Positions 7,971-53,761 of a stretch of DNA of 64,000 nt are shown here, in pieces. The stretch is taken from NCBI RefSeq assembly GCF_055900595.2, contig NZ_CM148325.1. The stretch is one strand, 5' to 3'. The stretch's first letter is position 1. Every line of letters starts with the position of its first letter. The notes beneath the pieces are model-generated. The model made no database searches. It saw nothing but the letters and a program-made list of their open reading frames with translations, and was not told the DNA's origin. Position numbers and translations under genes: made by a program.

Positions 7971-10016
<2,046 letters not shown>

Positions 10017-47830: not shown

Positions 47831-47909
47831 CCGGAAAGCGGTTCACAGATCTCGCTTCGAACCAGGCAGGCCTATTGACGCTGTTGTTTTTTCAACCTAA
47901 AGTAAAGGA

Positions 47910-48060
47910 ACAAGGGTAAGGGAGGATTTCTCCCCCCTCTGAATTGGTTGTTAATAAGCCTGGAAACTTACTAGTAACAACACAATCAGTATGATGACGA
48001 ACTTCATCATAACCCTTTCCTTCTATAAGGCCCCTTCTTCGGGAGGGGCTTTCCCGTTTC
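47910..48060 (+). ncRNA. sibE: Sib antisense sRNA, copy proximal to hldE (likely sibE)
   Basis: plus-strand TTGACG-N17-TAAAGT promoter at 47875-47903; plus-strand terminator CCCCUUC-UUCG-GGAGGGG at 48031-48048 then U-rich tract; fully antisense to the ibs ORF; ends inferred. Confidence 0.6.
47951..48010 (-). CDS. ibsE: Ibs-family hydrophobic toxin peptide (19 aa, MMKFVIILIVLLLVSFQAY)
   Basis: minus-strand ATGATG start preceded by GGAAAGGG RBS, TAA stop; sequence fits the Ibs pattern. Confidence 0.75.
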   Translation of the reverse strand: MMKFVIILIVLLLVSFQAY

Positions 48061-48231: not shown

Positions 48232-48286
48232 TATGTGTTAATGAAACCTTCTTGACGCTGATTTTTTTTCAACCTAAAGTAAAGGA

Positions 48287-48436
48287 ACAAGGGTAAGGGA
48301 GGATTTCTCCCCCCTCTGAATGGCCGTTAATAAGCGTGGAAACTTATCAGTAACAGCACAATCAGTATGATGACGAACTTCATCATAACCCTTTCCTTAT
48401 GTAAGGCCCCTTCCTCGGGAGGGGCTTTCCCGTTTC
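48287..48436 (+). ncRNA. sibD: Sib antisense sRNA, copy proximal to yqiK (likely sibD)
   Basis: TTGACG-N17-TAAAGT at 48252-48280; terminator hairpin at 48405-48426; antisense to second ibs ORF. Confidence 0.6.
48327..48386 (-). CDS. ibsD: Ibs-family hydrophobic toxin peptide (19 aa, MMKFVIILIVLLLISFHAY)
   Basis: second copy of the 19-codon ORF with the same RBS context. Confidence 0.75.
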   Translation of the reverse strand: MMKFVIILIVLLLISFHAY

Positions 48437-48624: not shown

Positions 48625-50301
48625 TTATTCTATGTTTTCTGCGACGGGAGTTGTTGAGGTTAAGGGTGAAGTCAATGCCGCCAGTGAGCCGCCTGAAACG
48701 CCAATTTCATTGAGCAAGGAGTCAATCAGCGGTGCCTGTGTGCGGTAAGAAAGGGCGGCAGACAATGCCTGTTCTGCCAGGTTTCCGCCACTAACGCTGC
48801 CTGATGCCGCATCCCCCGCAGCACCACCTCGGTTTAATCCATCGACCTGAATAATCTTGATGCCGTCAATGGACTTCATCGGCTCAACGGATTTCTCTAT
48901 TACTGCAGGTAACGACTGTAATAGCGCCAGTTTGAATTTAAGGCTGGTTTGCTCGTCAGAAAGTACGTTGATAGCGTCGTTCAGCGCACGTTGCGCTTCT
49001 GCTTCCGCCAGGCCTTTTTTGCGTGTTGCTTCGGCTAACTCAACGATCGCCGCCGCCTGCATCTCTGCGGCTTCTTTCTCTGCGGCTTCTTTCTCTGCTT
49101 TCGCCCGCACGGTCAGTTCAACCGCTTTGGTTTCTGCATCCTGCGCGGCAGCGATTAGGGCAACTTGTTTAGCACGATCGGCTTCTGCGGTCTGGCGAGT
49201 GGTTTCTACGTTTTGCTGGGCGCTTACCGCTTCTGCAAGTGCAAGGTTGGCACGCGCTTCCGCTTGTGACTGCTGTTCCGATTTGGCGGCAATAGCGATC
49301 GATTTCGTCTGGTTGGCGATTTCGGTGACCTGCTGCTGTTCGATCTCTTTAATGCGAACTTCACGTTCAGCTTCAACTTTTCTGGAACGGACGACCTGTT
49401 CGCGGTCGATTTCCGTTTCCTGAATCTGTCGTTCAGCCAGAATTCGCGTCTGCTCTGCTTCCCGACGACGCTCGGCCTCAAAAGCCGCAATTTTCGCATT
49501 CTGCTCAGCGGTACGGGTTTTAACCTGCTGCTCCTGCTCAAGCGTCATAAACGCTTCTTGCTGTTCAATCTCCAGCTTCCGCGAAAGCGCATCACGGTTT
49601 TTCTCACGCACCGCAACTTCTACATCCTGTTCAACTTCGTTACGTTCGCGACGACGGCGCTCCGTCTCCTGCGTCAGCTTGGTTAAACCTTCGGCGTCAA
49701 AGGCGTTGTTAGGATTGAAATGTTCCTTCGACGTCTGGTTAAAGTTGGTAAGTGAAACGCTTTCCAGTTCCAGGCCGTTTTTCGACAGATCTTCAGCAAC
49801 GGTATTTTGTACGCCCTGCACGAAGTTCTCGCGGGTATCCTGTAACTCATGCATGGTCATTTGTGCAGCTGTTGCACGGAGGGCATCGACAAATTTATCT
49901 TCAACCAACATACGTAAGTCTTCAGGCGACAGGGTGCGTTGCCCCAGCGTCTGGGCGGCGGTGGCAATACCTTCCACTGACGGTTTTACCCGCACAAAGA
50001 AAGCGACAACGACATCGACGCGCATACGATCTTTCGTAATCAGGCTATCAATGGTTGAGCGGCTGACTTCCAGCTTCAGAGTATTCATATTGATGGGGAT
50101 TATTTCATGAAAGATCGGCATCACGATTGCGCCACCGCTCATTACCACTTTTTGCCCACCTAAACCAGTACGAACAAAAGCTTGCTCTGCCGAAGCGCGA
50201 CGATAGAGCCTGGCGAAAATAATTCCAATAATAAACAGAATGCATACGGCAATAATTGCGGTAAACATCCAGGAGGGCACAGAATTAACAATATCATCCA
50301 T
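48625..50301 (-). CDS. yqiK: SPFH/band-7 (flotillin-like) inner membrane protein YqiK
   Basis: 558 aa, N-terminal TM, SPFH domain, long E/A/R/Q-rich coiled coil. Confidence 0.9.
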   Translation of the reverse strand: MDDIVNSVPSWMFTAIIAVCILFIIGIIFARLYRRASAEQAFVRTGLGGQKVVMSGGAIVMPIFHEIIPINMNTLKLEVSRSTIDSLITKDRMRVDVVVAFFVRVKPSVEGIATAAQTLGQRTLSPEDLRMLVEDKFVDALRATAAQMTMHELQDTRENFVQGVQNTVAEDLSKNGLELESVSLTNFNQTSKEHFNPNNAFDAEGLTKLTQETERRRRERNEVEQDVEVAVREKNRDALSRKLEIEQQEAFMTLEQEQQVKTRTAEQNAKIAAFEAERRREAEQTRILAERQIQETEIDREQVVRSRKVEAEREVRIKEIEQQQVTEIANQTKSIAIAAKSEQQSQAEARANLALAEAVSAQQNVETTRQTAEADRAKQVALIAAAQDAETKAVELTVRAKAEKEAAEKEAAEMQAAAIVELAEATRKKGLAEAEAQRALNDAINVLSDEQTSLKFKLALLQSLPAVIEKSVEPMKSIDGIKIIQVDGLNRGGAAGDAASGSVSGGNLAEQALSAALSYRTQAPLIDSLLNEIGVSGGSLAALTSPLTSTTPVAENIE

Positions 50302-50327: not shown

Positions 50328-50957
50328 TTACAGTATTTGGGGCCAGGGTTTTTTTTTCGCCAAATATCGCGTTGCAGAAAGTCGGCAAATAATTAATACT
50401 TTGTCTCCTTTAGTGAAAGTTTTTTCTTCTTCAGGTTCCAGTAGTAAATAATGTATTTGGCCAAATTGATCGGTGAGTTTTCCTTCACAGGGGTTACCTG
50501 AAGTGGCCTGATGTCCGGTAATTAATGCCATGCAGCCAATATATTCTTCTTCTGTAATAGCTGAACTATGGTCGCGTGGAATCCAGGGCGCAACTATTTT
50601 ACCGGTATAATGCACCGCAATAATCGTTAGCAGTAAACTGACAGGAACCACAAACAGATTTGTGAGTGGTGATTGCCAGACCATGATGCAGACCTGCTGT
50701 AGCAGGATGCCAATAAGGCCAAAAAAACCAGCATGTAAGCAGAGAACGACGAGAGCTGGCAATCTTCCAAAATTGAGATAATGAAGTGCCTGGCTAATAT
50801 GACCTGTGGTTATGGAATCATAATGGTCAAGATGTGCATCAAGAGCACCGGAAAGCATGTGACCGCAGATAAGTGCAAAAATTTCTAAAAGGCCGATCAA
50901 AAGTACAAAAGAAATAGCGAAAAGATAAGGGGTGTTATAGTCAGCGAATAAAATCAT
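50328..50957 (-). CDS. yqiJ: NfeD-like membrane protein YqiJ
   Basis: 209 aa multi-TM ORF immediately upstream of yqiK (NfeD-SPFH operon arrangement). Confidence 0.88.
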
Positions 50958-51226: not shown

Positions 51227-51427
51227 ATGGATCATAGTCTTAATTCTTTAAATAACTTCGATTTCCTGGCGCGTAGTTTTGCCAGAATGCACGCAGAAGG
51301 TCGCCCGGTCGATATTCTGGCCGTTACTGGTAACATGGATGAAGAACATAGAACCTGGTTTTGCGCACGTTATGCCTGGTATTGCCAACAGATGATGCAA
51401 ACCAGAGAACTGGAATTAGAACATTGA
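51227..51427 (+). CDS. glgS: surface composition / glycogen synthesis regulator GlgS
   Basis: ATG at 51227 after GGAGG RBS, 66 aa [18 protein letters not shown]...; ORF track starts two codons earlier at GTG. Confidence 0.9.
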
Positions 51428-51431
51428 TATT

Positions 51432-51453
51432 ACGGGCCGTCTGGCCCGTTTTT
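51432..51453. terminator. hairpin terminator between convergent glgS and ubiK
   Basis: ACGGGCC-GTCT-GGCCCGT followed by TTTT on plus. Confidence 0.55.
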
Positions 51454-51461
51454 GTGGTGCT

Positions 51462-51761
51462 TTATTCTGCTTTATCAACCGGCGGGATAGCTGGAGGAGA
51501 TTGAAGTTCTGCTACCGGATTATTGCGCGCTTCCAGTTCGCTGATGCGTTGTTCCAGTAACGCCAGTTTTTCACGAGTCCGTAACAGGACTTGCGTCTGA
51601 ACGTCGAATTCTTCGCGGCTTACCAGATCGAGACGCGTCAACTGCGCTTGTAGGGTTTGGCGGATTTTTTTCTCCACATCTTCCCCGAACTCCCTGATTC
51701 CTTTAGGCATTGATTCGTGAACCTGGCGAGCGATTTGCTCAATTTTTTTCGGGTCAATCAT
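51462..51761 (-). CDS. ubiK: ubiquinone biosynthesis accessory factor UbiK (YqiC)
   Basis: start at ATG for [19 protein letters not shown] (99 aa) after AGGGA RBS; coiled-coil BMFP-like. Confidence 0.85.
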
Positions 51762-51882: not shown

Positions 51883-52134
51883 GCTTATTCTCAGGGCGGG
51901 GCGAAATTCCCCACCGGCGGTAAATCAACTCAGTTGAAAGCCCGCGAGCGCTTTGGGTGCGAACTCAAAGGACAGCAGATCCGGTGTAATTCCGGGGCCG
52001 ACGGTTAGAGTCCGGATGGGAGAGAGTAACGATTCTGTCGGGCATGGACCCGCTCACGTTATTTTGGCTATATGCCGCCACTCCTAAGACTGCCCTGATT
52101 CTGGTAACCATAATTTTAGTGAGGTTTTTTTACC
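51883..52134 (+). promoter_or_regulatory. sroG: FMN riboswitch (RFN element) and expression platform in the ribB leader
   Basis: CAGGGCGGGGCGAAATTCCCCACCGGCGGTAAA...CCGACGGTTAGAGTCCGGATGGGAGAGAGTAACG matches conserved RFN aptamer blocks directly upstream of ribB. Confidence 0.85.
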
Positions 52135-52788
52135 ATGAATCAGACGCTACTTTCCTCTTTTGGTACGCCTTTCGAACGTGTTGAAAATGCACTGGCTGCG
52201 CTGCGTGAAGGACGCGGTGTAATGGTGCTTGATGATGAAGACCGTGAAAACGAAGGCGATATGATCTTCCCGGCAGAAACCATGACCGTTGAGCAGATGG
52301 CGCTGACCATTCGCCACGGTAGCGGTATTGTTTGCCTGTGCATTACTGAAGATCGCCGTAAACAACTCGATCTGCCAATGATGGTAGAAAATAACACCAG
52401 CGCCTATGGCACCGGTTTTACCGTGACCATTGAAGCGGCTGAAGGTGTGACTACCGGTGTTTCTGCCGCTGACCGTATTACTACCGTTCGCGCAGCGATT
52501 GCCGATGGCGCAAAACCTTCTGATCTGAATCGTCCTGGCCACGTTTTCCCACTGCGCGCGCAGGCGGGTGGTGTGCTGACGCGTGGCGGCCATACTGAAG
52601 CGACTATTGATCTGATGACGCTGGCAGGCTTTAAACCGGCTGGTGTGCTGTGTGAGCTGACTAATGACGATGGCACGATGGCGCGTGCACCAGAGTGCAT
52701 TGAGTTTGCCAATAAACACAATATGGCGCTCGTGACTATTGAAGACCTGGTGGCATACCGTCAGGCACATGAGCGTAAAGCTAGCTGA
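52135..52788 (+). CDS. ribB: 3,4-dihydroxy-2-butanone 4-phosphate synthase RibB
   Basis: 217 aa, DRENEGD motif. Confidence 0.95.
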
Positions 52789-52826
52789 AAACCGCTGCTT
52801 AATTTACCGCGTTAATCAATAAATAT

Positions 52827-52850
52827 CCTCCGGCATAGCCGGAGGTTTTT
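52827..52850 (+). terminator. ribB intrinsic terminator
   Basis: CCTCCGGC-ATA-GCCGGAGG followed by TTTTT. Confidence 0.7.
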
Positions 52851-52868
52851 CAAATGCGCCTGTAAGGC

Positions 52869-53575
52869 TCTGTTACCAGCCGCGCCCTAACAGGCGCATA
52901 CGATCTGACATTTGCATTCAACTTCGTTACTTACGGCCCGTAAACGGGCTGCCCGGATATGGAATCGATAACTGCTCCCCCATTTTATCCTCTTCAAGCT
53001 GGTGCTTTATGTAGTCCTGTATCTTCGCCGTGTTCTTACCCACCGTATCGACATAGTACCCTCGGCACCAGAACTCCCTGTTTCTGTATTTGAATTTCAA
53101 ATCCCCAAACTGCTCGTAAAGCATCAGACTGCTTTTCCCTTTCAGATATCCCATAAAGCCGGATACGCTCATTTTGGGTGGGATTTCCACAAGCATATGG
53201 ATATGATCTGCGCAGCACTCTGCTTCCAGAATCCGTACGCTTTTCCACTCACACAGCTTTCTCAAAATACTGCCTATCGCCCTACGCTTCTCTCCGTAAA
53301 ACGCCAGTCTTCGGTATTTCGGCGCAAAAACTATGTGATATTTACAGTTCCAGCGGGTGTGCGCTAAGCTCTTTTCGTCCCCCATTGGGACCCCCTTTTG
53401 ATTTCTTGTTTGACACTTGCAGTTGCCAGACCGCAAGGTGTTTTAACAAATCAAAAGGGGTTTTAATAACTGGCTCAAAGCTGAAAGCTTTCCGGAACCC
53501 CCAGCCTAGCTGGGGGTTTTCTGTGCACAAGAAACCGAAGCTATTACTGGCTTCGGTTTTTATTTTGCTCTTGTT
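52869..53575. mobile_element. IS200 copy (about 0.7 kb)
   Basis: 152 aa IS200-type TnpA plus characteristic structured left end: terminator hairpin AAACCGAAGC...GCTTCGGTTT (53532-53559), hairpin AACCCCCAGC...GCTGGGGGTT, and a long stem pairing with the RBS; boundaries estimated from the expected ~707 bp size. Confidence 0.75.
52927..53385 (-). CDS. tnpA: IS200 transposase TnpA (Y1 HuH)
   Basis: start at ATG for MGDEKSLAHTRWNCKYHIVFAPKYRR; HIHMLVEIPP HuH motif; 152 aa. Confidence 0.9.
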   Translation of the reverse strand: MGDEKSLAHTRWNCKYHIVFAPKYRRLAFYGEKRRAIGSILRKLCEWKSVRILEAECCADHIHMLVEIPPKMSVSGFMGYLKGKSSLMLYEQFGDLKFKYRNREFWCRGYYVDTVGKNTAKIQDYIKHQLEEDKMGEQLSIPYPGSPFTGRK

Positions 53576-53761
53576 ATGCAAGATGTTAATTCCTCTTCTC
53601 TTTCTATGAGAAAATTTCATTAATATCAGGCATTCTTTTCCATTATGATCAAAATCATATAATTGTTCCGTTATTATGCGACCATATGAATATATCCGAA
53701 AAAGGATATGTGAATTTTATGCGCTAAATGTTTAGTATTGTTAAATATTAAGGGTAAAAGG

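Follow-up and report, generated by a model that had tools for sequence, protein, structure and literature searches.

Does the close apposition of glgS and ubiK in some strains of Escherichia coli represent a site that never held the fimbrial operon found there in K-12, or a site from which that operon was cleanly deleted? The question arose from an initial annotation of a stretch of 64,000 nucleotides (the window), made from the letters alone. We examined the junction in the window, compared it with K-12, with the complete genomes of E. coli and with related species, and assessed how the occupied and unoccupied states could have arisen.

The glgS-ubiK junction in the window

The DNA of the window belongs to E. 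coli, and the 4.2 kb around the junction were 100% identical to several complete genomes, e.g., those of E400634 and Z0117EC0005. The glgS gene (66 aa) occupied positions 51227 to 51427 on the plus strand; it was taken from the list of open reading frames, matched the Pfam GlgS family (E = 5.7e-45), and carries that name in the annotations of Z0117EC0005 and E400634, which are identical here. The ubiK gene (yqiC; 99 aa) lay on the minus strand at 51462 to 51761, matched the Pfam BMFP/UbiK family over residues 1 to 78 (E = 1.6e-27), and is annotated as a 300-bp ubiK in the same two genomes. With the TGA stop of glgS at 51425-51427 and the TAA stop of ubiK, on the minus strand, at 51462-51464, the spacer between the convergent stops measured exactly 34 bp (51428-51461), in agreement with the initial estimate of about 34 bp.

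This spacer is the unoccupied site of the ygiL-yqiGHI island of K-12. Searches of the 64-kb window by tblastn with YgiL, YqiG, YqiH, YqiI and three B2-type proteins returned no fimbrial remnants, which bears out the absence of the operon that had been noted, and there was no IS2 at the site. A scan of the region from 46 to 56 kb against Rfam gave no match within the spacer; the complete list of matches in that region comprised an FMN riboswitch, two Sib RNAs, and the leader of an IS200 element. The riboswitch (51883-52031, plus strand; RF00050, 120.9 bits) is located 5' of ribB (52135-52788, plus strand), a gene identified from the list of open reading frames and the annotation of related loci, and one that forms the left border of a second fimbrial site described below.

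Comparison with K-12 and the C-terminus of UbiK

The gene order in MG1655 is ribB, ubiK, ygiL, yqiG (split by IS2I), yqiH, yqiI, glgS, and yqiJ, and the stops of ubiK and glgS are 6,608 bp (6.6 kb) apart, compared to the 34 bp by which the UbiK flank of the island directly adjoins the GlgS flank in the window. The placement of a fimbrial cluster of several kilobases and an IS2 between these genes in K-12, as stated in the initial annotation, was therefore correct. The K-12 genes correspond to the Yqi-like locus b3043-b3048 of Wurpel et al. (2013, PMC3559732), of which the window, at the same chromosomal position, carries the unoccupied allele; the K-12 locus has fimbrial genes, IS2, and a UbiK of 96 aa, whereas the window lacks the first two and encodes a UbiK of 99 aa.

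The two alleles do not differ by a clean insertion into the spacer. Pairwise alignment of the window with K-12 extended on the glgS side through the hairpin to approximately position 51456, and homology restarted in BLAST only at 51531, 69 nt inside ubiK, such that the difference spans from about 51457, just past the hairpin, to 51530, at ubiK codon 78. Residues 1 to 77 of UbiK were identical, after which the window encodes 22 residues (codons 78-99; 51465-51530, minus strand) and K-12 encodes 19 (NRSTEIKKQPDPETLPPTL). The 22-residue tail, delimited by BLAST, by the translations and by its sharing with outgroups, is referred to here as the ancestral tail, and the ubiK of the window as the ancestral allele. 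The two proteins part where the Pfam BMFP domain ends (residues 1-78), which is also where the second predicted helix of Salmonella YqiC ends (residues 49-79; PMC3107778).

The K-12 tail starts like the tails of other genera (ENRS...EIK). An enterobacterium with approximately 77 to 82% DNA identity to E. coli, seen in two Logan assemblies (L033, positions 152-846, SRR33454298; L034, ERR3179213), encodes a K-12-like tail, NRSTVTVVKDDQETLPPTL (...ETLPPTL). In this organism GlgS has 70 aa, the ubiK-glgS spacer is 191 bp long with the same hairpin core, and the fimbrial operon is absent. The K-12 tail is thus a genuine UbiK tail type and not the product of random read-through.

The hairpin between the stops

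The single hairpin that had been noticed in the spacer was recovered both by a terminator scan and by folding. It spans 51432-51449 (ACGGGCC-gtct-GGCCCGT), with a 7-bp stem (ACGGGCC/GGCCCGT) that contains 6 GC pairs and a loop of 4 nt. On the glgS strand the terminator scan found a T run directly 3' of it (51450-51454), giving the GC-rich stem-loop followed by a U-rich stretch, TTTTTGTGG, that defines an intrinsic terminator. In the ubiK sense the sequence 3' of the stem is UAAUAUCAAU, which makes a poor U tract, and the scan found no minus-strand site; this is not the pattern of a bidirectional terminator. The 51-nt hairpin context had folding energies of -16.1 kcal/mol on the plus strand and -15.4 kcal/mol on the minus strand (z = -2.8 and -3.6, respectively), and 2 of 200 shuffled sequences folded equally well on each strand.

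Conservation of the core is a stronger argument than these shuffle statistics that the hairpin is not due to chance. The core, CGGGCC-N4-GGCCCG, did not vary among the 24 junctions examined, which came from at least five genera, and the loop did, with ten different tetraloops. The outer stem differed in sequence with complementarity kept (tgag/ttca in Salmonella; aaaaagaga/tctcttttt in Citrobacter sp. NCU1). In the 24 junctions the hairpin was always near the glgS stop, with a T-rich tract after it in the glgS sense, and in K-12 it is likewise retained beside glgS. Taken together, these data suggest that the hairpin is best described as the intrinsic terminator of glgS, which in the ancestral arrangement would also face ubiK; it would probably stop ubiK transcription less well, as the ubiK strand has no U run. 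The window resembles the shared terminators of convergent genes in having a GC-rich stem-loop between two stops and a U run on the glgS strand. It is unlike the fully bidirectional form, with A and T runs on both sides, which was present in only some genera, e.g., in Citrobacter sp. NCU1.

Distribution of the two alleles in E. coli

The contiguous glgS-ubiK junction was found in 2,062 of 5,426 complete E. coli genomes, the K-12-type operon body in 3,366, and the K-12-type UbiK tail with the ygiL leader in 3,362. The empty and occupied counts together approximate the whole collection, and the locus is thus biallelic in E. coli, with 2,062 empty and about 3,365 occupied sites. The near equality of the tail and operon counts likewise indicates that the type of UbiK tail is coupled to the operon; approximately 62% of the genomes encode the UbiK isoform with the K-12-type tail and approximately 38% that with the ancestral tail. 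Nor do the counts point to any empty-site genome in which the K-12-type tail borders the glgS hairpin directly, as it would in a clean deletion allele. The operon body was at least 80% covered in 3,269 of the 3,366 matching genomes, leaving about 100 partial clusters, and fell into two main allelic groups, one with at least 99% identity to K-12 (1,581 records) and one with approximately 94.6% (1,510 records, including O26).

These counts and the survey of Wurpel et al. (2013, PMC3559732), in which the variability and both of the fimbrial loci considered here were already described, uphold the earlier view that the locus is a known variable one, and the empty site is an ordinary strain marker. 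Its main value is as a clean marker of this kind; what we add is which state is ancestral, where exactly the borders lie, and that the UbiK tail is dimorphic in step with the island.

Direction of change

We scanned for outgroup junctions with a GlgS query, using one genome per species, and obtained 27 loci. Both genes were present in E. albertii, three cryptic Escherichia lineages, E. whittamii, nine Citrobacter, Salmonella enterica subsp. arizonae and diarizonae, and three Trabulsiella. At every scanned locus with both genes, glgS and ubiK were convergent, 28 to 73 bp apart, and separated by the same hairpin core, and all of these outgroups encoded the window-type UbiK tail (...P(A)PAIPPVD...). 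The UbiK of E. fergusonii was of the ancestral tail type as well. In S. Typhimurium, Carrica et al. (2011, PMC3107778) described yqiC as convergent to glgS and divergent from ribB, and as encoding a protein of 99 residues with helices ending near residue 79; this arrangement and tail type are like those of the window. The Salmonella subspecies examined differ from the window in having a spacer of 73 bp, compared to 34 bp, and a longer outer hairpin stem.

As the tight junction, its hairpin core and the type of UbiK tail all recur in the outgroups, the empty junction is ancestral and the occupied K-12 junction derived. The choice between ancestral absence and clean deletion, which the initial annotation had left to be checked by alignment, is thereby decided for ancestral absence. 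We consider it highly probable that the junction in the window was never occupied and that ygiL-yqiGHI was received later, on the lineage leading to K-12-like E. coli.

The window could, however, descend from operon-bearing ancestors that regained the ancestral allele by homologous recombination with an empty-site strain. Such a reversion would suit the strongly mosaic neighborhood, in which the window differs by 3 to 9% from other E. coli in yqiK/yqiJ and by 4% beyond ribB, and the 5' end of ubiK, the riboswitch and the 5' end of ribB are by contrast nearly identical to other E. coli. It would also suit the rarity of the haplotype, which was matched at 99% or more by only 8 of the 5,426 complete genomes. 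Nothing points to it specifically, though: the nearest relatives of the window are all empty-site strains, and the window-type junction was found in every outgroup. We therefore regard reversion as unlikely.

Origin of the occupied allele

The K-12 insert has a GC content of 40.1%, compared to 49.6% in its flanks. Its borders showed neither direct nor inverted repeats of at least 9 nt, and no integrase or tRNA is annotated there, which is not what an integrase- or tRNA-associated island would show. Differences between K-12 and the window were concentrated at the borders. Within glgS, 8 of 9 differences fell in the last 45 nt (binomial P = 4.5e-5), and divergence in the first two 50-nt bins was 18% and 8% toward glgS and 10% and 12% toward ubiK, as against 0 to 2% beyond approximately 50 to 100 nt on each side of the junction. 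Other empty-site strains diverged from the window by just 0 to 4% in the glgS-side bins. Because K-12 (group A) shares the private substitutions and the borders with O26 (B1), a single origin is indicated.

These features bear on the possibility that a mobile fimbrial island inserted, independently or site-specifically, into the 34-bp spacer of K-12-like strains by transposition or through an integrase. The low GC content of the insert would be in keeping with such an event, as would the frequent carriage of fimbrial operons on mobile elements and the presence of an usher fragment on a few plasmids. Borders without integrase, tRNA, or direct or inverted repeats are not, and the difference reaches beyond the spacer into glgS and ubiK alike, where there are donor-like substitutions and a UbiK tail that is homologous but foreign; moreover, the A and B1 alleles have identical borders. 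We consider this scenario quite improbable, more so than reversion.

The simplest reading of the island's origin, and to us the most likely, would be a single homologous recombination event that brought in DNA of a diverged enterobacterial donor whose own ubiK and glgS already flanked the operon. In the ancestral state the two convergent genes share one GC-rich hairpin. With crossovers inside glgS (at approximately nt 160 of 201) and inside ubiK (at approximately codons 40-77), the 3' end of glgS, the loop of the hairpin, the operon, the AT-rich regulatory region, and the tail of UbiK would all stem from the donor in K-12-type strains. Such an import would have swapped the last 22 codons of ubiK for a foreign tail of 19 codons and, at the same time, parted two convergent genes that had a common terminator.

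Two observations speak against the import. No donor with the operon between ubiK and glgS was found, the YqiH relatives outside E. coli and Shigella having at most 53% identity, and the sole lineage found with a K-12-like tail (L033/L034) has no operon at the site. Alternatively, the spikes of divergence could stem from long-term suppression of recombination beside an old indel and not from donor DNA.

Two candidate donors were considered and rejected. P0128, with a 75% match to YqiH, proved to be a K-12-like E. coli scaffold with a mosaic yqiH 3' end and yqiI. The enterobacterium L033 was set aside in view of the K-12-private substitutions in ubiK codons 40-77, which do not specifically match it; it is a relative of the tail type rather than the donor. 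The mosaic lies in an ENA metagenome scaffold (L035, 8475-9821) that was K-12-like, with 99.9% identity up to position 8475; from there on the last part of yqiH and the whole of yqiI belong to a divergent allele (chaperone 75% identical overall), as if the adhesin end of the operon had undergone allelic replacement.

A true secondary deletion at this locus was available for comparison. In TL012, ygiL and half of the usher were lost via IS1, and the K-12-type ubiK of 291 bp was kept. The window carries no scar of this type; its UbiK tail is ancestral and no island-linked sequence is retained, whereas TL012 keeps both the K-12 tail and IS1. A precise loss of a K-12-type ygiL-yqiGHI from the lineage of the window is almost certainly not the explanation, even though fimbrial operons are often degraded (as the partial clusters at this locus attest) and IS-mediated losses such as that of TL012 do happen here, because no deletion starting from a K-12-type site could bring back the 22-codon tail, the hairpin loop and the glgS 3' end common to other species and genera, because K-12 tail and operon co-occur almost perfectly, because the deletion allele examined keeps the derived tail with an IS scar, and because the outgroup comparison contradicts it.

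A second fimbrial site between ribB and yqiD

The spacer between ribB and yqiD (52789-53761) is the site of the Yqi/EA-I operon of extraintestinal pathogenic E. coli (ExPEC) in B2 strains; in the window it lacks fimbrial genes and holds an IS200. The B2-type genomes 21AR0707 and UTI89 had the same tight glgS-ubiK junction as the window together with a four-gene chaperone-usher operon between ribB and yqiD. With a query free of IS1, this operon was counted in 994 of 5,426 genomes, including UTI89, Nissle 1917, and NRG 857C. Its proteins had 38% (adhesin, YqiI), 50% (chaperone, YqiH), and 56% (usher, YqiG) identity to those of K-12. The operon matches the yqi/EA-I cluster, which is present in ExPEC and absent from K-12 and O157:H7 (Antão et al. 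2009, PMC2771359). The Yqi/EA-I fimbriae of B2 strains also go under the name 'Ygi' (see Spurbeck et al. 2011, cited in Wurpel et al. 2013). They represent a related four-gene operon in the same neighborhood, whose carriers share the tight junction of the window, but one that sits at ribB-yqiD, unlike the K-12 operon. The name is a trap, as 'yqi' refers in K-12 and in ExPEC to two distinct fimbrial operons, whose sites are approximately 1.3 kb apart in the window.

The window has neither operon, and both were also absent from Z0117EC0005, E400634, and 2017C-4173W12. Wurpel et al. (2013, PMC3559732) described the Yqi (B2) and Yqi-like (A, B1, D, E) fimbriae as related, encoded at different loci, and mutually exclusive. 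If the two operons do exclude each other, as that report and our two B2-type genomes suggest, the double-empty state would comprise approximately 1,070 genomes (20%).

Yqi-related chaperone-usher operons were also observed directly 3' of ribB in E. whittamii (L007, 4494-9461) and Trabulsiella (L019, 11607-16577; L020; L022), at the same site as in B2 E. coli, with proteins of 35 to 56% identity to K-12. Within this part of the family, the operon beside ribB may therefore predate the other one.

The IS200 copy lies between ribB and yqiD on the minus strand (52817-53527; approximately 711 bp, with an end-point ambiguity of 7 nt). It contains tnpA (52927-53385, minus strand; Pfam Y1_Tnp, E = 7.9e-37) and the STnc490 leader RNA of IS200 (53395-53518, minus strand; RF01405, 146 bits). 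Since it is absent from Z0117EC0005 and E400634, which are otherwise 99.97 to 100% identical, this copy appears to be private to the window strain within the collection.

Implications for UbiK

In the literature consulted on these loci, we found no statement that the K-12 island arrived with a different UbiK C-terminus. The difference in the tail is relevant when UbiK results are transferred among K-12, Salmonella, and B2 strains. One could speculate further that import of the fimbrial island also altered metabolism in a hidden way and so set the major phylogroups apart, either through the UbiK tail or through lost coupling with glgS. If so, the tail or the loss of convergent-transcription coupling would affect the UbiJ-UbiK complex, ubiquinone levels or glgS expression; we think such an effect unlikely.

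Observations in neighboring genes and other records

The yqiK gene of the window (48625-50301) encodes 558 aa, compared to 553 aa in K-12, and its DNA differs by approximately 9% from K-12, O26 and B2 alike, more than the surrounding genes; yqiJ follows at 50328-50957. Two Sib antitoxin RNAs of the Ibs/Sib type I toxin-antitoxin system (47875-48025 and 48252-48401) lie between hldE and yqiK, arranged as the sibD/sibE pair of K-12, and 21AR0707 (B2) has only one annotated ibs toxin gene there.

Contigs from metagenome-assembled genomes labeled 'Collinsella sp.' and 'Bacillota bacterium' (L018, L028, L029) carried glgS-yqiI-yqiH-yqiG with 88 to 100% protein identity to K-12, and judging by this identity they are evidently E. 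coli contamination of the bins.

Another presence/absence polymorphism was seen a few kilobases away. A module of dsbI, dsbL, and an aryl-sulfate sulfotransferase gene lies between ygiD and ygiC in 2017C-4173W12 (L031, 13027-16195) and is absent in K-12, Z0117EC0005, and E400634; in UTI89 (L037, 11082-11447), at least dsbI adjoins ygiD.
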